DNA of 64,000 nucleotides from Ascidiella aspersa (Eukaryota). The stretch lies in assembly GCA_963924565.1 (NCBI GenBank), contig OZ004609.1, positions 17,360,001-17,424,000 on the forward strand, given 5' to 3'. Position numbers and translations under genes: made by a program. Shown here one piece after another: positions 11,177-60,700 of the stretch (position 1 is its first letter; each line of letters starts with the position of its first letter). The notes under the pieces are model-generated. The model ran no database searches, had not been told where the DNA came from, and saw only the letters and a program-made list of their open reading frames with translations.

Positions 11177-21408
<10,232 letters not shown>

Positions 21409-24700: not shown

Positions 24701-27700
24701 CTATCATTTGTATAAATACCCTCTGGCTCTGAGTATTAAAATATGTCTTACCACTCTTAAGTCACTATATGCGAAGTCGGTATCAGTGGTGCCACGCTTC
24801 CAATAATAACTTGGTAGTAAAAATAAAACTTAATGGTTTTTATGTAGTATTGGTCCCAAAGTCATATCTGACGATGAGACCTGATTTTAGGTTTACTCCC
24901 AAGCCAATTTTATGTGACAAATATGTGTCACACAGTTTTTTAAGTGCTAACAATGCTGACTACCACAGAACTTTAAGCGAGTAGCTGAGGTTTGGATGGA
25001 TGAATACAAGGAGTACTTTTACAAAAAGCGGCCATATGTGCGTGGCATCGACGCCGGGTCGCTAGAGAAGCAGAAGAAGCTTCGAGAAGATCTCCAGTGT
25101 AAGTCCTTCTACTGGTTTATGACAGAAGTAGCGCCAGACATCGTCAAGCACTACCCGCCTGTCATGCCCGAGCCGGCCGCTTGGGGAACGGTGAGTTAGA
25201 AGAGAACCAAAGCGACGTGGTTTATTCGACCAGTGGTCTCCAACCTTTTCTATACGCGACCACAATTTAAATAAAATGGAATCAGAAATTAAATTGCGAC
25301 CCCAGTTTGTTTTCAGATTACATAATTCTACAAAAACTGTGGCTACACGTGTGCATCAAATTGATTGCTTTTAGGAAGTTTAATTTAACATATGAATTTG
25401 AATTTAACAAACGAACCCAGGTGGTTTATTAACGCTGCCTGAATATTTTATTACTAACTAACGTCCCAGTTTAAGTAAACCAAACAGCAAACATCCAGTG
25501 GCTGTGCTGCACCTCATTATCACAAAGATACGATTTTTTATTATTTTACCACAACCGATTAATTGTGACATAAGGTAGGAATCTGTTCTGTTATTGACTA
25601 AATGAAGAATATAAAGCCCACTCCTTATATATGCAAACCACGTTACCCAATTTCGTGGAAAAAAAAGCCTTTTGACTAATTAAAAAATGTGACTTTCGCT
25701 GCGCTAAATCAAAGAAGTCTAATTTTGTGAAATGTCACGTTACATTATTTAGCACCGAGCTAAAAACAGCAGTTTTAAGTAGAAGGAAGCAAGTCTCCGC
25801 TATCAACTGAGTCACGTTTATTACTGTGACGTTATTATAAATAAAGTGAAATATTATACATAAATCGTACTAAAACAGCAGAAGGTCGCGACCCACAGGT
25901 TGGAGACCACTGTATTAGACGATATTCGGAAATACGCGTTTATATTAATTTGACAAATAAAAACAAGAATATTATAGATCCATCGCGACCTGGTTTAATT
26001 TACGAATGCGATTACCGCTAATAAACGACATAATCACCTAATTTGATGACTATGTGTTACTTGATTGTAATTATTAATAAGTATGGATTATACACTACAA
26101 GTCTAAAAAAATTGGGTTAAGGCCCATTTGTTTTGTAAAGGAGGGGTCTAAGGTTTATTAAATTTGGTAAAAATTTTCCATTCATTTTCATAAACAGTTA
26201 GTTTAAAAGTTGTTAATTTGTTCGATAAAATAAACAAATAACCTCAAATAGCCTATGAAAAAATAATTGCTAGATAATGGTATTTTTTTGTAAATCAACT
26301 ACTACTTTGCGTTACGCCACGAAACTTCTTTCAGTTGATAAACAAGGGAATGAACTTATGCATGGATGCCATGTACAAACCGCAAGGAGGGCCACTCTCT
26401 GTGCAAAAGTGCAGGAAGAAGGGTTCGGCTGAACAGGTTTGCACCGACTTCATTTAATTTGTTGTCTACTTCAACTTTAAAATGTTACAGTTTGCTATCT
26501 GTTATAATTATCTGATCGATTTCATTGGTTCTTTTTTGTGGTACACTATCCCAGTGGATCTCAACCTTTGTAAGCATCTGAGCCAAATTTGAACAGTGAG
26601 TATCGAGCTGCAAAAAGATCATGCAGTTTATTTATAAATTTTAATTAGACAAACTACGTCAAAGAAGGCAAAATGTTTCTCTTCCTTTTTACTCAAAGTC
26701 AAAAACGTCCTATTTTCTGGCTGAAGAAGGTAAGCTTTCTTCGAAAGTTGTTTTGGCATCGCGTTGTGTTATGTGCAGAGGTGGATACAGTATTGTTTTT
26801 TAGGGGGCATAAAAAATTTCAGGTATGACGTCACAAAGTTACGCAACTAAACAATTAATCTAAAACGCTTGCTGTTGTCGAGCGAACTCGTGCGCAAATA
26901 TGCTTCGGATAAATCATTTTATTTTTTGAACCTTAATGCGGGAGCCGGTAAAAAGACGATTAGGAGCCGCATGTGGCTCTCGGAGCCAAACTAATAAAAA
27001 AATGCTCATTAAGGCAGGTATTTTTTCCATAATATTTAAAACTTTTTTAAAACCTGTGTTACCTTTTATCACCGGAAATAAAATATCTAAATATTTTTTA
27101 ACTGACTCAACTACTAGGAGTATAAACAATTAAACATACAACAAATGTATTCAAAATTTACACCAAAGTCATAATTTATACGTTAGGTCAAAATTATTTC
27201 AGGGTAAAATCGTTTTCAAATTGCCCAAAAATCGTTACAAAATTACCAAAAACTGCAAAAGCGATACAATTACGTGTATGTGAAAGGAAAAGTGAAAAGA
27301 ACAGACGTGCAAACAATAAAATATCGAAAAAAAAACAACACACAAACAAACGATAAAATAATACGTGTAACAGTTGTGAATCTTAGATTTGGACAAATGT
27401 ATTGAACAGTATTTGCTGTGTTGTTTCGGTGGCGATTTGCGATTTTTGATTTGCTATTTCGATAATATGTAAGCTCTTTGTTATTTTTGTATTTCAACTA
27501 AGGTGTTTAGTCAACAATTTTCAAAAATATCCCGCGTCTTGTTTTTCGTTGGTATTTTTAGTGGTTTGTCCTTTTGATATGCCAAAAAATCAATTAAAGA
27601 TTTGAACCCGAAACCTAACTGATTTGTGTTTCACCTAGGGTTGGCAAGCCTGTCAATTGACCGGTCAAATACGGTCAATTGACCGCACTTTATTTAACCG

Positions 27701-30298
27701 GTCAAATATTCATATTGGACATATTGGACTTTTTTTTTCAAATGTTGTAAATTTTTTAAGGGTTGTTTTGTGGTTGGATTTTTTAATAATCTTGATTGTA
27801 ACTTTTTTAAAGAATTTAAATATAAAATCGTAGGGTTGGTTTACCTGATGCAAACACATGTTCTGTGCTAATAACAAAGTGAAGTAGATTTATTTTGGTA
27901 CACCGAAAGCCATTGCAGACTCGCCGAATCTGTTGATCTATGATGCAAGCAGGGCAGGCTAGAAAAACAACTACAGCTTCAGAAGGGCTAGATCTCAGTT
28001 GTTAACACACTCTGTGTGCATGTTTCATTGAATAAATGATATGATACTGTGGATCCCCTTCAATATGAAGTTGCTTGGACTAACAGATTGAGCAAGCATT
28101 GGCGTATGGTTGTTTCTCGACTCGCTCCTATCTGAGCCTGGGTAGCTCAGTTGGTAGAGTGGCGGTCCCGGCTTGACCGGACGTCGTGAGTTCGAACCTT
28201 ACTGCAGTCTAGTTGTTTTTCTAGCCTGCCCTGCTTACATCATAGATCAACAAATTTGGTGAGTCTGTAATGGCTTTCGGTGTACTAATTATACGTAAAC
28301 CGTAATCGTTGGTCAAAAAGCAGCTTCAGAAAGGCTAGACTCCAGTTGTTACACACTCTGTATGCATGTTTCATTGATTAGATTTATTTTGTTTAGAATA
28401 AATGCACGTATATGAGGCTACTTAGAAATTTAGAAGAACCAAATCCCTTGTCTCCAGTGGACCCTGGTGATGATTTAGAAAATTCAGATAGTGACAAAGG
28501 TTGTGACGAGGAGTATAACTATTTTTGATGCATTTACTTGTTGTTATATTTCGTTAATAAACTTGTTGGCTTAACTTGGTTGTTGTAGTAAGGGAAAAAA
28601 TTACTACAGTAACTGATATATTATTGGTTGTAAGATGGGCATGATTTTGCCAAAATTCTTATTGATAGTCAAAAAATACTTGTTTTTGGTTTTCAAACCA
28701 TTGTACTTGAGCCCAAACGTTCATATATTTATTTAAAGTTAAAATCATGGTTAATTTCAACCTAAATTGCATTTTGATAGTGTGTATAGTATTTGACCGG
28801 TCAGTTAACCGGATTTTATTTGACTGGTCAAATGCCCAACCCTAGTTTCACCGGTCGTCAGTAAAACATCAAAATCAAGTGACTGACGACGCCAAGACAC
28901 TTCAGCAGTATATACTTCATACAACATTGTGTTGTTTTAATCAGCGTATTTTTATTGGGTAACATTTTTGTCCAAAAAAATTTTTTAATGTCAAAATTTT
29001 AATTTTTTGAGGTGAAAAATAATCACCCTACCTATTATAACGCATTGCCCGAAAGTCAAGTCGTTGGTGGCAGAACAATATGATTTTTTTGTCATTTAAA
29101 TGGAACGAATAAATTAAAATATCGTGACACCATTCGCCCAGCATCAGAACGTTATAAGTACGTCATGGACATAGCTATTTGTTATACCAGCCGTAGGTCT
29201 TTAACAATATTTACTTTGTCACCTTTTCAGGAGCTAATATTGACTTGGAAGGAAGACATCCGACCTGGTGGGGATATGGACTCGGCTCGCAAGATATGTT
29301 TAGATGGCCAGGGACTTAATCGACCTTTGGTGCTGTGGGAATGTCACGGTCAATATGGCAATCAGCTGTGGAAGTACAAGGTTAGGTTATTTGTAATACA
29401 TACACCAGGGATGTCCGATAATATCGGATCGTAGCCGATACACGATGCCAAGTGGTTGTATCGGTACTCGTCAGATATTAGGGTGGTATCGGCGCCGATC
29501 CGATACCAAATTAATATGGGAATTTCAGCCATATTTTTTAATAAAAAAGCAACGATTTTACATTTAAAAGTAAATTTGTCACAACTTAATAGGTAGTGGT
29601 AACTAAACCTCTTAACGCAAATCAAATTTTGGGTTAATAATCTTTAAAAATTACTACTGAGCATTTAAATTTTTTCAATGTTGCTTTGAGCATAGTAAGG
29701 ACCTTATTTGGTATCGGATCGAATCACGATACTGTTTGCCCAATATATCGGGTATCGGCATCGAAATAAAATGTCAAGTATCAGAAATTCCTAACACATA
29801 CCTTAACGAAAATTCTACTATTTTCATGTATAAAGATTAAAGAACGTGTAGATTTACGATCCGGATTTTATGGAGCTGCGTTGATACAAATATATGCCTT
29901 TTCTCGTTAATAAATTTTGTTTTGTGAATGATAATTTGTGTTATATGGCTGCTATGCAGCTAAAGTATCTGTGCTACACATAGTGATGCTTTACCGTGAT
30001 TGACAACGATTGTTGAAAATTGCAGTGACTAGCACTTGTATTGTGAAATCAAACCCCAGATACCTAAATTGTCGTGATTACTCAATCAAAGTTTTGTTGC
30101 TTTTAGTCAGCCACGAAGCAGCTATACCACGCCATCACTGGCTTGTGTGCCACCGTCGATCATATGGACAACAAACACCAAATACTTCTACTTCCCTGTG
30201 ACGTCACAAACGATTATCAGGGCTGGACATGGGAGCACACAGACTTCGACAAATTAAAACGTTCCAATTTAAATCTTAACTCACCTGCTAAGGGTTAA
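21739..30298 (+). CDS. GALNT10: Polypeptide N-acetylgalactosaminyltransferase, GALNT10/GALNTL6 clade, ~607 aa. Exons: 21739-21906, 22085-22172, 22272-22410, 22648-22814, 23399-23584, 23659-23842, 24126-24243, 24320-24427, 24969-25190, 26335-26436, 29231-29380, 30107-30298
   Basis: Type II signal anchor, [34 protein letters not shown] metal motif, [17 protein letters not shown] (GALNT10-type), [28 protein letters not shown], and a C-terminal ricin-type lectin domain ([14 protein letters not shown]). The spliced frame is open to TAA at 30298. Confidence 0.93.
25231..25912. mobile_element. hAT (Charlie-like) MITE in a GALNT10 intron
   Basis: Perfect 15-bp TIRs cagtggtctccaacc / ggttggagaccactg. 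TSD tattcgac / tattagac. Confidence 0.88.
27636..28844. mobile_element. Non-autonomous hAT element hosting a nested retro-insertion
   Basis: TIRs tagggttgg(c) / (c)ccaacccta, subterminal tgaccggtca repeats, and a perfect 8-bp TSD gtttcacc on both sides. Confidence 0.88.
27898..28378 (+). mobile_element. Non-coding retro-element with an internal tRNA-like (Pol III) module, terminal direct repeats and a 5' inverted arm
   Basis: 13-bp TSD tagatttattttg. Inverted repeat 27898-27973 / 28210-28285. Direct repeat 27974-28031 / 28321-28377. A box tagctcagttgg (28143) and B box gagttcgaacc (28188). Confidence 0.8.
29406..29793. mobile_element. ccgata/tatcgg-rich MITE (related partial copy at ~15968-16140)
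   Basis: Ends cagggatgtccgata / tatcagaaattccta, internal ccgatac repeats, and shared strings such as aatatcggatc..agccgatacacga and aaatttgtca..aataggta in the 16 kb copy. Confidence 0.65.
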
Positions 30299-54700: not shown

Positions 54701-57700
54701 AGTAAAACTTAAAAAGTGTTCAAATCCAAGCACTATTTGTTAGGAAACAATATTTATAAAGAAAACTTCGTTTCAAGCCTTTGAAACTTTGTTTTAAGCC
54801 ATTTAACTTATTAATATTCATCCTAATTTACCACATACGAGAAACCAGGTAGCCTATTAATAAACTGGCGTAAGAGTTATAGGCGGTTTCACAATAAACA
54901 CTAACTTTAGGTAATTTTTATTTCTCAGATTCTTTCTCCTGGAATCAGGAAGCTGCTATCAGGATATGAGTCAACTAACTTTCTCTGGTCCAGGAGTATT
55001 TAGTCTTAACACGAGTCTCATGGAATTATATGTGGAGTACCAGTTCAGGGTTGTTGTCAGAAAAGGTGACAGGAAAAGTTCTTTCAAGCAACAAGTCATT
55101 GTTAAGGAGGGCGATCCTCCAGATTTTCAAATCAAGTGAGTTTTTTGTTAATAGTACACTACGCTTTTTGTTTGTTTTAAATCGGTTGTACAAATTACGC
55201 AAAGCCCAAAGAGATACATACAGTTTATCGTGAATGAAATTTTAATGGTGGTATATCCAACTGACACCGTATAGATATTTCAAGTGGTGTATTATAATCG
55301 CGAGAACAGTGTTTATAGTTTTGCTAATCATATAGGCGTATATGTAGTTACATAGATTTCTTTCGCGCTTAGTGCTGTCGTCTTTAGCTTAATTAGTACC
55401 ATCATTTCAGCATTATCCAATCAATAGGTTTTGGAATTATTTTTATAGACAAATTTATGAATGTTTAAAACCGTATTTTCGCATTTTGATCAGATGCGGT
55501 GAGAACTGTAAGGAGAAAATGAACCCGACCCAGGTCCTGGCGTTACAGGCTGTGTGTTACAACTGCAAGGCACGACGTTATCCTGAATATAAGTGGAGTT
55601 TGTTTGAACTTATATCTGAGGAGAAGAACGGAACAAGTAACAACTCTACCACTGGTGTGATAGCAAACTTTTCCATTATACAACAAACATAAAGCCAGTA
55701 TCAAAATGCAGTTAATGAAAGATACACACACATATGTGTTCAACAACTGTGATCTAGCCTTTCTGAAGCTGCTTTTTGACCAACGATTACGGCTTACGTA
55801 TCTTTAGTACACCGTGATGGCTTTCGGTGTACTAAAATGCAGTTAATGCGAAATTTAATCGTTTTCAGTAGCATTTTTATATTTATTTCAGTATAGATTG
55901 TGATTGAGTAAAAAATTTATAAGCCTACTAATGTTTCAAGTGGAAATACCATTCCTCCATTTGTACCAACCTGACTTCTAAATTAAAGGCATGTCTGTAA
56001 CATCTATATTTTTCTCTAAATCTCAATAAACATGCGAAATTGTGCGAATAACAATTTTTACCATCAGATTTATTTTATTAAGTGTGCGTTCATGCACCTC
56101 TTTTTTCCATGTATACAATGCACTATTTTATAGTATTTGTAGCACTGTTGAAATTTTCGAAGATTTTTTAAATTTGTTGACTTGTATAAGGTCTTATGTG
56201 TTTTTACTTTTCAGCTTCAGGAAAGCGGGGACCTGGAAAAGTCACTTACGTTGAAATAGTAAGTTGTTCGGTCTGATTAAAAGTGTCACCCACGACAGCA
56301 CAAAAAAATGTCGTAGTATCGTTACATTGACAATTTTCGTAGTTTGACTGGGAGAACAACTCGACCACCGGTGCGAACAAAACGGTTGTAGTTTTGAATC
56401 AGAACGCGCTCGTGGGTGGGCGCGAATACGTCATGCGAATCAACATTTCAATGGACGGCTTCGACGACCGGGTTTACAGCTTCTCTGAGTTTCGATTTAT
56501 CACCAACCTTCCGCCATACGGTGGCGAATGTACAACTGCTGCATCAGTAGGTAAGAAATGAGAACTATTGGCAAATAACGATGAAATACCTTACATTGCT
56601 AAACAAAAGCTATACGTACGTCCGTCGTTCAGTAAACATCGGTCCAAGCTTAGAATTTAAATAATGAAATTTCAGTTTTAAAACTTTTTTTGAACATTGC
56701 ACCTATTGTCTTATAAAGTTGATTTAAATCTCATGTGAATGAGAGACTTGTTATTAAATTAGCGTGATTGTCGCCAACGAAAATATTATCCTTCTGGCTT
56801 TTTTTTGGTTTTGCTTGTTGAACTCAATATGCGCAAATTATGCGAATGATTTAATGCTAGCCAAGATTTTAATGTTATTTTTCATGCACTTCAGGAAACT
56901 GTCACGATTTCATTCCTTACCGAAGTCAGCGCCTGGCTGGAATCAGACCAAAGCAAAGACTTAATGACACTACAATGGAAAAATGCGCGCAGTATTGCTG
57001 TTTGACCAGGTTAGATACTTAAAAATACATATTTTTATGTTTTAGGTATAGCATATAATATTACACTTTCACTGTTTATAATGCAGATATTTAGAACAGA
57101 TTCTGGTTTCAAATGTTTCGTATTAAAACCTAAAGTCGTACGCACCTGTCTGTATAGTTTTATCGAGCAGGGTTTTATTGTACATCCCTCCTATACCTAA
57201 CACACAATAAATTCAACACAACACATTCTTTTGAAACGAGGTATTTTTGGTGCTCAGCAAACCAGCATATTATCATTGGACGAACGCGGACAAACAATCT
57301 TGTCCATGTTCTTCGACAAACTATCGAGCAATCCAACACACGAGTTGCGCACCTCCCTGGCTACCAAGCGTAAACTGACCACTTCTTTTCCGTCCAGTTC
57401 CTCGAGTGCTCGCACGAAATCGCCGACACCAGGGCTTTTGACGAACTTACTTGCCAGATCAGCCCTGGTCAGGTAGTAAAGCGAAAGTGCCTGCAACAAG
57501 ATATTATGATAAATTGACTTAGCCCACGAAAACAAAAAGTTGATTTGTAAGCACTGTATGACTGCCAATCAGGCGGAAAGTTTGTGAGTTTGTATTCTGG
57601 ACAATGTAATGCGCCGTGGTAATGCAGACCACTGAAAGTTATTGTACACAAAAGAGTTATTGGGGGCTTACCACTTGACCAATATATTTGGGTGCCTTTA

Positions 57701-60700
57701 TCTACTGGTTTATGACAACACCTGGATTTGATCCTAACAAATAACGACATGTTGCACTGTACTACACCAATCATCTTCAGAAACCTGCAAAAATGCGGAA
57801 CTCTCTCCCTCGACCCGTCTCACTTCCTCGATCATGTCTCCCTGCACCTCTACGCCGAAATTGTTGCCGTCCTGCATGGCCGGTATCTGCAGCTGGACCC
57901 AGGCACGCACTGTGTTGCAGCACTCAGTAACAGCGCGCAGCTCCGGTTTGAGCACCTCTATCATACCACAGATGAGTGGGTTGCATTCTAGGACCGCCTC
58001 CGGGGTCGACTCTTCGTCACTGTCGCTCTTGTCACTGTCCTCCTCTTTTGGTAAGTTTCGCTTTCGGCGCTGCTTTTCGAGCTTTTGCTTTTTGCTTTTC
58101 GGTTCTTTGACCTGAGGTTTAAGACAGAGGGTGAAGGTTTTCGTTTGATAAAAAATTAACGTTGATGGCAGTATACAAACGGCGAAGCAAGTATTGGAAA
58201 GCCGATAACAAACACAAGTAGGCTAGTCTGTTTTGAACGTTTTTCACGCCAGGATCCTGACTGCAATCCATCATTTGTAGCCGCCAAAGATTCACGCCAA
58301 ATTTTTTTTCGGCTTAAATCCTACGCCAAAATAGGACAATATATAACCCAAAAAGGACAATTTTTAACAATTCAGTATGTGTTTGGACTGACTTTTTACT
58401 TTTGACGATTTACCATGCCTATAAATTGTTTTATGTTGCACTGAATATGTGAATAATAGAAATCACCTTGACCCTTGCAAGATAAATGTCGACCTTAATT
58501 CCTGATGAGTAACAGCAAAATAATCTAGCAAAGCTAGCAATTCAGGTCAGACACATTAACCAGATCTTAAAAAGATATATATATATTTCGCCAACTAAGG
58601 TATCGTCAGTATATCTTAATTCGAATTCGATTATTTTTTATTTTTTGCTGTATAAATTGTTTTGTAAGACTTTTGTCTTTTAAGGGTGTCTTTTAAGGGT
58701 AGGTAATATTCTATAGACTAACTTAAAAGTTTATCAAACTGGAAGCCCCGAAAGACCTACCTCCAACTCGGAATCCGAGTTAACAGGTGTGAAGTAGTGA
58801 TCGTCGCCGCTACTGGCGTTTTCTTCTTGAGCTGTTCGTTGTGACACCTGAGGCAGCGAACTCAGATCAATTTTGTCTTCATTGCTTTCCACATCCAACT
58901 TGAGTCTCCTGCAGCTTTTGCGTAAGTGCTCCTTTACTTGGAGTATGCTGGCGTCCGAGAACTGATCGCTGTTGAGAATAGAGTGGAAACGGCGACACAG
59001 GTCAGGCAGCCGATTTTCAAATAGGGCCTGAGCGTCTTCTCTTAGCCTGGAACTAAACTCTTCCATAACTCTCGTTTAATTTTATTCAAAGAATTGCCAA
59101 AAACATTTCCTTTTTTGCTGAGGCTTGGCAGCTATTGTTTTTTCGATTGTTACGCCATAGTTGTGAATACAATAATAAATTATAGGCATTTTTATTACTT
59201 GACTTATTTACATACACACAATATCAATATTGTGCAAACATTAGTTCCATCACGTAAATAATTTTAACATAAGATAACTGTTTCTACTGCAGTAATCATG
59301 TTTGTTGATTGCACAATATGTTAATAAGTAGAAGCGGAATTCAAATGAATGTAACCGAACCTGAACCTGTATTAAAAGGGGTTAACTTCAGTATGAAGTT
59401 TATGACCTAATGAGCTAATTTATACAATGTTTAAGGCTACATTTTTTTTTCTTGTTATATCAGACAATGACCAGGTGTCAAGGATAGCCTGCATAACTAT
59501 TTTTTTATCATTTATGATTTCTGCGTGTAACAAATTGCAGATGACCGGGTAACTGAAAAACGTAGTACCAAAGTCACAAGCGCGATTGACGGCGACCTTA
59601 CAGATGGATTTAAGAAAGTATTATAATTTAATTAGGTATAGGCTACTTTGTTACTTGCTTAAAAAGATTATCTATAACTTGTTAAAGTAGGTGATTTTCC
59701 GTTGCTTGGAGTTTTTACTAATTTGCCTTTAAAACATCAAATATTTTTAAAAATACAACCTTTCGAGGCCCACTTTTGTTTTGAAAGTATTCCGTGGCTC
59801 ACTTCTTAAAGTTCTGCTTAAATTGAATGTAATGTGTAAGAAATCAAGAGTACCGTACCTTAAAAATGTAAAAAGAAGAACATTTTTTAATAACCCACAT
59901 ATAACGCAACTGTTAGTGCGAAGCTTGAGAATGTACTGTAAAACGAACTAAAGAATTAAAGAATAAAACTAAAATTTTCACCAACTTTTTGTCCAAAATA
60001 CTTTATCCAAATGCACTGTGGCCCAACTCATGTTAAGAACCCGTGTCATAGAAGGTAAGCAAGGCACAAGGTGTGAGGGTTTAGGACTTTTTTGTGGACC
60101 ATTTTTTTACCAGGGGACGCCAACTAATTTCGAATAGCAGTTGTACTATCCGGCATAACTTTATAGAGTCTTCATGTGCCTTTCGGTATCCTTCAATCGT
60201 ATGACATCAGAATGTGAACTGTTTGATGAAAACAAGGAGTCAGCAAAGCGAGAACTAAAGTATGAGCCTCATGTAGACCACTTTCAACGACTTTTCTACA
60301 GAGGAGGAGCTGTTGTAGACGAGGTAAAATGACAAGCTGCTGTTTTTCATTAAAGCAAAACTCTACTGCAACTTTCTTTAAAGATCGTCCTTGAGAAATA
60401 TGAATTGCCACAAAGTATTAGGAATGTATTTGCTTCAACAGATCGTGTTTGAATGTCGCAACTGGAAAGACGAAGGAAAACTAAAGTCGTACCCGAAAGA
60501 AGGCGAGCGCCAGCCGAAAAGCACTCTCACTTACAAATTCACGACTCTACCACAGTCAAATCGAACTGAGCGTTTGTTGCTTTATTTTGGAAATGTGCTT
60601 ACTACCCCAGGTTCGCTTTTCTATTGATAATAGTCGGTAATGTGTAACAACTTGCTATGGCGAAAAAATATCCAAAAAAGAAGCATTGTGCCTAAGTGCA

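Follow-up and report, generated by a model that had tools for sequence, protein, structure and literature searches.

A tandem tRNA-containing element without a hammerhead in Ascidiella aspersa, likely copied by Penelope-like elements, and its possible processing by tRNA splicing endonuclease

The 64,000-nucleotide stretch of Ascidiella aspersa DNA analyzed here (the window; assembly GCA_963924565.1, contig OZ004609.1, positions 17,360,001 to 17,424,000 of the forward strand) contains a short insertion at 27885..28391. It belongs to a family of at least several hundred copies, and probably thousands, of a tandem monomer of ~346 nt (unit range, 345-354 nt). The safe reading of this family is a high-copy, still young, tRNA-containing and ribozyme-less passenger of Penelope-like elements (PLEs), likely copied by the reverse transcriptase-endonuclease of the PLEs of this genome. 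A joint reading, which we put forward tentatively and at somewhat less than even probability, adds that the tRNA module of this PLE-copied tandem element may be cut by TSEN, the splicing endonuclease of tRNAs, and so stand in for the hammerhead.

The insertion lies inside a hAT-like MITE (Table 1), the empty paralogues of which measure 779-803 bp. Fourteen of the 39 other scored MITE hits were examined, and each of the 14 has a single 13-mer TAGATTTATTTTG, unchanged in 13 paralogues and altered at one position in the other; its two occurrences in the window are therefore a true target-site duplication (TSD), as an earlier reading made from the sequence alone (the sequence-only reading) had claimed. 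The inverted arm of 76 bp described there is recovered as 79 nt at 92% (27895-27973 / 28210-28288), of which 3 nt are common with the TSD; the B direct repeat, given a period of 347, measures 346-347; and the copy indeed ends without a poly(A) or microsatellite tail. The internal tRNA-like module proposed there is called by ARAGORN at 28135-28211. The Rfam tRNA score of this decayed copy is below the cut-off and young family copies reach 55 bits; the acceptor stem, damaged in the window copy, is intact in the family. The segment previously labeled A corresponds to the sequence up to reverse transcription (RT) start site 1, and the linker plus B to the PLE tail, which ends at RT start site 2. 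In predicted folds, B copy 1 pairs with the downstream spacer.

Table 1. Features of the insertion, its host element and a second family copy in the window
Feature	Position	Strand	Remark
Host element, hAT-like MITE with terminal inverted repeats	27636..28844	.	8-bp TSD 27628-27635 / 28845-28852
Left TSD, 13 bp, TAGATTTATTTTG	27885..27897	.	Direct repeat; single in 14/14 empty MITE paralogues
Inverted 5'-truncated arm, monomer positions 236-311	27898..27973	-	Tailless; 3' terminus at RT start site 1
Direct arm, 1.17 monomers	27974..28378	+	Tailed; 3' terminus at RT start site 2
B copy 1, tail end of preceding monomer, AC-rich hairpin	27974..28032	+	
Spacer, tail end to tRNA module	28033..28135	+	
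tRNA-like module	28136..28210	+	A box 28143-28154, B box 28188-28198
Anticodon loop CCGGCTT	28168..28174	+	CCGG is tRNA positions 32-35, self-complementary
Predicted endonuclease cut	after 28173	+	Putative
Hairpin able to sequester 3' acceptor strand	28204..28229	+	Loop contains T5 run 28216-28220
Segment A	28230..28287	+	Terminates at fixed 3' end 1 (about 28285-28287)
PLE-type tail, ~92 nt, made up of linker and B copy 2	28288..28378	+	Terminates at fixed 3' end 2
Stretch corresponding to the family-consensus match with the PLE P2 tail	28331-28360	+	Within PLE-type tail
Right TSD, TAGATTTATTTTG	28379..28391	.	Second occurrence of the 13-mer
Second family copy, minimal and head-to-head, without tRNA	55704..55847	.	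13-bp TSD 55704-55716 / 55835-55847
Arms of the second copy	55717-55814; 55817-55834		Inverted tail arm; 19-nt A-end arm

Family members are partial tandems of up to 12 units with variable 5' truncation; their 5' ends are random, and their 3' ends fall at two fixed sites separated by ~92 nt. The end census covered 270 arms from 221 de-duplicated elements, with a separate young sample of 64 arms, and 221/270 arms reach one of the two 3' sites. Of the head-to-head elements (n = 74), 52 use both sites, one per arm; the two arms share a site in 2 and in 1, and 19 contain an end that could not be classified, giving one arm per site in 52/55 classifiable elements (P = 8e-13 on the 55). The young head-to-head elements (n = 21) repeat this pattern, with 16 showing one arm per site, 1 both arms at the same site and 4 unclassified (16/17 classifiable). 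Exact TSDs, with a median of 13 bp, flank 34/52 elements, against 1/210 in the control. No poly(A), simple-repeat or LINE-derived tail is present at the TSD-defined ends of family copies. The census thus bears out, family-wide, the partial tandem of a permuted monomer that had been suggested for the window locus, and the outcome that the sequence-only reading had set against itself (copies that start at the tRNA head and end in a LINE-like tail, with this locus a one-off) was checked and did not come true. A pattern scan of one metagenome found no relatives.

We consider copying by PLEs likely because the two-ended, head-to-head anatomy with 13-bp TSDs is the same as that of the co-resident PLEs. 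The ORFs of these PLEs encode RVT_1 and GIY-YIG, and in 7/7 examined two-armed PLE insertions of the A. aspersa genome the TSD measures 11-14 bp and the tail 74-104 nt, ranges that include the TSD median and tail length of the family. In addition, the family consensus tail and that of P2, a PLE family (L169 and L369), agree at 25/30 columns (0/3000 shuffles); the matching stretch is offset by 120 nt from the tRNA 3' end, which equals its offset from the hammerhead core in P2. The match is short (30 nt), barely above shuffles under laxer scoring, and absent for the decayed window copy. No tail match was found to PLE families other than P2, ~60 further hammerhead-downstream sequences offered no better partner, and BLAST of the monomer against PLE loci returned nested insertions only. 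Frangieh 2024 (PMC11167929) describes a PLE that cuts and extends both strands, starting at two internal sites bounding the tail. Very probably, a PLE protein dimer here nicks each target strand, with the nicks ~13 bp apart, and reverse transcription would begin at two internal sites on either side of the tail. The hundreds of short insertions are in vivo evidence that head-to-head PLE arms nearly always start at different sites, one on each side of the tail, a step left open in the cited parts of Craig 2021 (PMC8557442) and Frangieh 2024.

The tRNA module is closest, among the tRNA genes fetched from this genome, to tRNA-Lys(CUU), relative to which 21/21 cloverleaf pairs are kept with 8 double-sided changes; this parentage is not certain, and the double-sided changes may come from another tRNA. 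Acceptor haplotypes pair in 146 copies (108+22+16), against 2 copies with a non-pairing combination. The anticodon loop has changed from CTCTTAA in tRNA-Lys(CUU) to CCGGCTT in the family, where CCGG is present in 122/147 loops and subfamily variation sits at bulge positions 36-37. A palindrome at 32-35 arises about 1 in 16 times by chance. One or two extra nucleotides lie around the anticodon stem. The A and B boxes are less variable than other regions (0.034 versus 0.072-0.084, non-CpG). Pol III terminates at T4-T5, and a T5 run resembling the tRNA-Lys gene trailer lies 3' of the tRNA in 144/170 copies of the 12 commonest variants. The earlier description of a "Pol III-driven non-autonomous parasite of PLE machinery" is supported as regards the PLE passenger by the census of ends, the size of the TSDs, the tail match and the PLEs resident in the same genome; the Pol III drive is no more than a possibility: the boxes are conserved but T5 follows the tRNA.

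From folding models, we tentatively propose that the tRNA module may replace the dimer-acting hammerhead of the Penelope host, in that host TSEN would cut and RtcB would circularize one monomer; we judge this possible, at a little over one chance in three. The RNA would have to span two successive tRNA modules, for example by Pol III read-through of the first T5 and a stop at the second. Because the anticodon loop starts with the palindromic CCGG, a single pre-tRNA containing a bulge-helix-bulge could form from two successive monomers: tRNA n would supply the 5' half and tRNA n+1 the 3' half of the pairing, and a CCGG-CCGG helix would form between two 3-nt bulges, making the "intron" exactly one monomer. 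TSEN would then cut after position 37 in each bulge, releasing one monomer with 5'-OH and cyclic-phosphate ends, which RtcB would close into a circle. Rolling reverse transcription of this circle would yield seamless tandems with random 5' ends.

In the unconstrained fold of a consensus 431-nt RNA, the first acceptor strand is predicted to pair with the second tRNA (P 0.97), and the bulge-helix-bulge is drawn. The spanning form lies 5.7-21.2 kcal/mol below two local cloverleaves in 8/8 natural dimers, and within 4.4 kcal/mol of the minimum in 6/8. Since a pair of identical hairpins is always free to exchange partners, this energy gain is in part trivial. The predicted geometry (a C32-G proximal pair, a bulge of 3 nt, a spacing of 6 nt between C32 and the cut, and a tRNA body with acceptor stem) agrees with the features set out in the cited part of Schmidt 2019 (PMC6614914), where a fully paired helix reduces splicing in fly and human cells. 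The ensemble probability of the CCGG helix in four dimers is 0.43 in one and at most 0.02 in three, that of the spanning anticodon stem is 0.30-0.64 in 6/9, and the T arm is unformed in the minimum-energy folds. The extra nucleotides around the anticodon stem could shift the TSEN ruler.

The 5' ends of arms show no pile-up at the tRNA head (15/137, versus 12, 13, 15 and 9 in adjacent windows; 1/64 in young copies). At the predicted cut, a first count of 17/270 arms in positions 196-203 against 5.4 expected was dropped, as a tRNA motif had been used to select part of the sample, sister-family variants interrupt the alignments, and the tally included one insertion twice. A clean subset gave 5 against 3.1 expected (P = 0.2), and the 64 young arms gave 3 versus 5, 5, 1, 3 and 4 in adjacent windows. 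One single insertion (L467; 14-bp TSD) has seven tRNA heads and six identical 354-nt units; together with the lack of a 5' stop at the tRNA head or predicted cut, this is the pattern expected from a circular template. A 12-unit array (L466) also occurs, which makes long linear templates possible. Of 218 variants that monomers of one element have in common, only 10 are rare in the family; this count was used in place of a nearest-neighbor test of within-element identity, which was confounded by duplicated loci and consensus-like copies. Tail arms that stop at start site 1, as in twin priming on one RNA, numbered 15/33 versus 4/26 (P = 0.024); the same comparison gave 8/20 versus 3/17 in a cleaner subset (P = 0.17), and young copies gave 1/18.

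The main rival to TSEN cutting, which we regard as somewhat less probable, keeps the PLE but makes the tRNA an internal Pol III promoter only, a role reported for Schistosoma Sm-alpha and for Cassandra, with uncut read-through transcripts of arrays serving as linear multimeric templates. It would account for the low variability of the A and B boxes, although the lack of any polymorphic site among 23 box positions does not by itself reach significance, and the near-identical arrays of 7 and 12 units agree with it, but the T5 after each tRNA would need read-through up to seven times. Frangieh 2024 (PMC11167929) found the main substrate to be unprocessed RNA and hammerhead cleavage to be dispensable in vitro; on the other side, 5' ends do not accumulate at the tRNA head, and acceptor and anticodon pairing are unnecessary for a promoter. 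Distinctly less probable is PLE mobilization with Pol II or host-gene read-through transcription, where the tRNA would be a captured passenger or have a TFIIIC chromatin role. Capture would be easy, since the tRNA-Lys genes of this genome form ~330-bp tandem arrays and have a T5 trailer resembling that of the module, and pLTRs can include unrelated sequence according to the cited part of Arkhipova 2013 (PMC3846280). A passenger would, however, be expected to decay like the spacer, whereas pairing is retained across subfamily changes. RNA reads from both strands fit such transcription, as does the AATAAA downstream of 3' end 2 in many copies, but one young subfamily lacks it.

A true retrozyme with an unrecognized self-cleaving RNA in the monomer is improbable, although the monomer resembles one in size, in tandem layout and in a circle that is predicted to pair strongly with itself (z -3.3 to -6.5 on the plus strand). 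The fixed 3' ends make the plus strand the template; there the hammerhead core pattern occurs in 0/330 arms, with 2/330 on the minus strand. The 19 Rfam matches that three loci gave with E up to 5 include no ribozyme family, and none was found at the window copy. Covariation outside the tRNA is slight (2/22 pairs in the tail-spacer hairpin). The minus-strand near-match ctgaagc...cgaaagcc, to which attention had been drawn, is no family feature, given the minus-strand count and the absence of the word CTGAAG from the second commonest variant; these searches reject a hammerhead on either strand, and the accompanying suggestion of a variant processing ribozyme is unsupported, the processing candidate being the tRNA module itself. 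An ordinary LINE-mobilized tRNA SINE, rearranged only at the window locus, has next to no likelihood, and the sequence-only reading had already judged that the locus does not fit an ordinary SINE of this kind: the tRNA origin of one part and the LINE-like TSD length would suit it, but the end census already contradicts it, with the same architecture in dozens of independent insertions, an internal tRNA, random 5' ends and neither a repeat nor a LINE tail.

The comparisons below refer to the cited parts of each source. Neptune/Nematis-type endonuclease-positive PLEs (Craig 2021, PMC8557442; Arkhipova 2013, PMC3846280; Frangieh 2024, PMC11167929) share partial tandems, 5' truncation, an inverted 5' arm and TSDs with the family, as well as a tail on just one of the ends, a pair of RT start sites and an AC-rich stem-loop near the end. 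Unlike them, the family has an internal tRNA and neither ORF nor hammerhead, and its ~92-nt tail is longer than their 30-40 nt, the PLEs of this genome having 74-104 nt. Chlamys PLEs such as MRC1 (PMC8557442) are likewise non-autonomous, head-to-tail multicopy and similar at the 3' end to an autonomous PLE, and their clade is without canonical hammerheads; no tRNA module is reported there, whereas the putative partner of the family has a C-terminal endonuclease and hammerheads. Animal non-LTR retrozymes (Cervera and de la Pena 2020, PMC7229834; Li, Clavereau and Pollet 2026, bioRxiv 10.64898/2026.07.22.740005) are also ~350-nt non-coding tandem monomers with predicted self-paired circles, a link to PLEs and an expected ligation by RtcB, and the 345-354 nt of the family units lie within the 170-400 nt of retrozyme monomers, but their defining type I hammerhead is missing from the family, where the circle is only predicted.

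Schistosoma Sm-alpha and Sj-alpha are tandem non-autonomous retroelements that contain a Pol III module derived from a tRNA; in Sm-alpha a hammerhead does the cutting and no PLE-type ends are reported (PMC6765202, PMC2770079). The Cassandra, Helenus and Ajax TRIMs hold a small-RNA gene in a non-autonomous retroelement with a module-to-module transcript, but use an LTR/integrase pathway with PBS and PPT and are neither tandem nor PLE (PMC10886601). The proposed enzymes, ends and bulge-helix-bulge geometry are those of tRNA intronic circular RNAs (Schmidt 2019, PMC6614914; PMC10485636), except that the "intron" would here consist of repeated tRNA halves plus a PLE end and serve as a mobile-element template. 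Searches of openly accessible papers turned up neither a tRNA-containing ribozyme-less PLE passenger nor a TSEN-processed retroelement, and no described repeat family that corresponds to this one. If processing by TSEN is true, circular RNA templates would have a new route of formation and eukaryotic TSEN a new class of substrate, a mobile element would be parasitizing tRNA intron splicing, and tandem tRNAs with a palindromic 32-35 would be the search rule for other genomes.

One RNA run gave 1116 reads from both strands, 84% of them running into other sequence, and is uninformative; it has no pile-ups of read starts or ends. Seventeen RNA reads span the unit joint, and the same joint exists in DNA.

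The element is real: the 13-bp target site duplication (TSD), inverted repeat, B period and tRNA-like module described in the sequence-only reading were each confirmed in place, with an inverted pair of 79 nt at 92% identity and a direct repeat with a period of 346-347. The 13-mer of the insert is present once in 14/14 paralogous copies of its MITE host (examined out of 39 other scored matches), and since it is single in these empty copies, the 13-bp duplication arose upon insertion.

Features of the window, with coordinates relative to it
Feature	Position	Remarks
Insert TSDs	starting 27885 and 28379	13-bp direct repeats
tRNA call	28135-28211	
hAT-like MITE hosting the insert	27636-28844	8-bp TSD; family with internal TTGACCGGTCAA repeats, empty length 779-803 bp, 236 first-look candidates
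Second, minimal copy of the family	55704-55847	same anatomy, 13-bp TSD
CAGTG...CTCAACCTTTT terminal motif	25219-47001	six occurrences; probable termini of a further DNA transposon family
Inverted Penelope-like end fragments	13762-13971 and 58429-58620	minimal hammerheads; two different families

Searching the 308.6-Mb genome with the insert gave 4611 first-look candidates, 40 of them scored, and exact motif counts reached 2820 for the tRNA T-arm word (sister forms included), 691 for the A end and 590 for B, with 0 matches for the reversed-motif controls of these words. From loci chosen by best match or by three motifs in genome order, we mapped 239 elements with a monomer of 345-354 nt, leaving 221 after de-duplication (74 head-to-head, 122 single-armed, 25 other). 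The first two classes comprise 270 arms, and 221 of these end at monomer position ~312 (the A end) or ~60 (the B end), two sites ~92 nt apart. One arm terminates at each end in 52 of the 55 classifiable head-to-head elements (p 8e-13), the others having both arms at A (2) or both at B (1), and 19 further elements contain an unclassified end. Exact TSDs with a median of 13 bp flank 34 of these 52 elements, against 1/210 at shifted control positions. A further set of 63 young elements, partially overlapping the first, has one arm per end in 16/21 two-armed elements, and 36/37 of its single arms terminate at A or B. TSD edges commonly share 1-4 letters with the element ends, which suggests short pairing at priming.

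This anatomy is that of a passenger of Penelope-like elements (PLEs), as the sequence-only reading had proposed, and mobilization of the family by PLE machinery is very probable. A PLE protein is described as cutting and extending both target strands, with its starts at two internal positions flanking the tail (Frangieh 2024, PMC11167929), and the tail as lying on one inverted end (Arkhipova 2013, PMC3846280). In all seven two-armed PLE insertions examined here, a tail of 74-104 nt is found on one arm only, with TSDs of 11-14 bp. A candidate autonomous partner is P2, one PLE family of this genome (L169, L369): consensus B matches its tail at 25/30 columns, a score reached by 0/3000 shuffles. 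This match spans a short stretch, loses strength when scoring is relaxed and disappears in the decayed copy of the window. In P2 the tail forms the beginning of the ORF; the matching stretch sits 120 nt past the tRNA in the element and, likewise, 120 nt past the hammerhead core in P2. Minimal hammerheads lie on the sense strand of the PLEs of this genome (1246 pattern matches), which fall into at least seven Neptune/Nematis-type families (L169, L151, L157/L164, L153/L159, L154, L161, L170, L323), in two of which GTAA replaces the hammerhead GAAA. Whereas PLE tails in the literature measure 30-40 nt, those of most families here are far longer (74-104 nt), one being ~37 nt.

The tRNA module is a complete cloverleaf followed by T5. 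The closest of the genes compared with it encode tRNA-Lys(CUU); they have a similar trailer and lie in tandem arrays of ~330-bp period. All 21 pairs are kept between the two, with eight double-sided changes and one single, and this parentage is not certain. Acceptor variants across the family fall into pairing combinations in 108, 22 and 16 copies versus 2 non-pairing, and A and B boxes are half as variable as other regions. Across 38 distinct rows, pairing holds in 93% of cells; the score for covariation, inflated by relatedness, exceeds 500/500 shuffles, with double-sided change in only three pairs. The anticodon loop, CTCTTAA in tRNA-Lys(CUU), is CCGGCTT in the element; the palindrome CCGG occupies positions 32-35 in 122/147 loops, 129/147 are able to pair, and subfamily changes are located at positions 36-37. 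Ordinary tRNAs have U33, from which the C33 of the element departs, and the tRNA-Lys genes of this genome have T there. Two tRNA-Lys(CUU) arrays of ~330-bp period (L487, L488) hold 8 and 9 genes per 3 kb, several degenerate. Older sister forms (L061, L065, L072, L073, L079, L081, L087, L095) consist of spacer plus tRNA repeated two to four times with a 135-141-bp period, T4 after each unit and the loop CCGGTAT; some lie within the same A/B-ended anatomy (L080, L231), and others run into different 3' sequence.

The 5' ends of copies are evenly spread in both the main and young samples and do not cluster at the tRNA head. This even spread and the T5 after the tRNA both speak against a simple Pol III head. 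The element lacks both the 5' head and the repeat tail of SINEs, making an ordinary SINE extremely improbable. The element works similarly to non-LTR retrozymes and Sm-alpha, but without the hammerhead that defines both. A ribozyme hidden in the monomer is very unlikely, given that the hammerhead core was found in 0/330 arms on the plus strand and that none of 19 Rfam matches from three loci (E up to 5) is a ribozyme. The minus strand carries the core in 2/330 arms, and the near-hammerhead suspected there did not hold up, its word CTGAAG being absent from the second commonest variant. That the tRNA unit is itself a passenger appears improbable. A role of the tRNA as promoter only is the leading alternative, slightly less probable than the endonuclease route proposed below.

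We tentatively favor, at somewhat below even chances, a route in which tRNA splicing endonuclease (TSEN) would cut the tRNA module and the monomer would be circularized. In an RNA reaching from one tRNA start to the following T5, a hairpin 3' of the first tRNA is predicted to capture its 3' acceptor strand (P 0.99), and the first acceptor strand to pair with the second tRNA (P 0.97); the unconstrained consensus fold gives a 3-nt bulge, a 4-bp CCGG helix and a 3-nt bulge. In this predicted bulge-helix-bulge the proximal pair is C-G, the bulge has 3 nt and the spacing is 6 nt, as reported for all 16 fly intron-containing tRNAs (Schmidt 2019, PMC6614914), and such a motif alone is reported to be enough for Xenopus TSEN to cleave non-tRNA RNA (PMC10485636). 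TSEN would cut after position 37 in both bulges, freeing exactly one monomer with the same ends as hammerhead cleavage products; the ligase RtcB, described as circularizing such ends in retrozymes (PMC7229834), would then close the circle. A circular template would explain the seamless tandems, the flat 5' ends and a single insertion with six identical units (L467). Monomers folded as circles have predicted z of -3.3 to -6.5. The palindromic-loop layout parallels the minimal hammerhead of the probable partner PLE, whose palindromic stem allows copies in tandem to act as dimers.

Several results weigh against the endonuclease route. An RNA run yielded 1116 matching records out of 7.8 million; they come from both strands, most lie inside other transcripts, and they form no pile-ups and show no cut or circle. 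The spanning fold is better than two local cloverleaves in 8/8 dimers (two successive monomers), but no more than six come within 4.4 kcal/mol of the minimum, and the CCGG helix probability in four dimers is 0.43, 0.00, 0.00 and 0.02. A fully paired helix is reported to reduce splicing of reporters (Schmidt 2019, PMC6614914). A 12-unit array (L466) could provide linear templates, and rare shared variants are few (10/218). An apparent 5'-end stop at the predicted cut site vanished in a cleaner sample.

If true, TSEN processing would be a mechanism new in kind. Retrozymes as PLE derivatives (bioRxiv 10.64898/2026.07.22.740005) and tRNA promoters inside tandem elements (PMC6765202, PMC2770079, PMC10886601) appear in published accounts, and our search, confined to the literature, found neither a ribozyme-less tRNA-containing PLE passenger nor a TSEN-processed retroelement.

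The L466 array (with L437, L443) has 12 tRNA heads at a 348-bp period, 9/11 units being identical; a short fragment of the tail follows it, oriented tail to tail. This array is a possible source locus. Three loci on small contigs (L031, L032 and L489, on C35, C11 and C54) have UvrC- and Rho-like frames and a CCA-encoding tRNA, which we take to look bacterial; these contigs are possibly contaminants.
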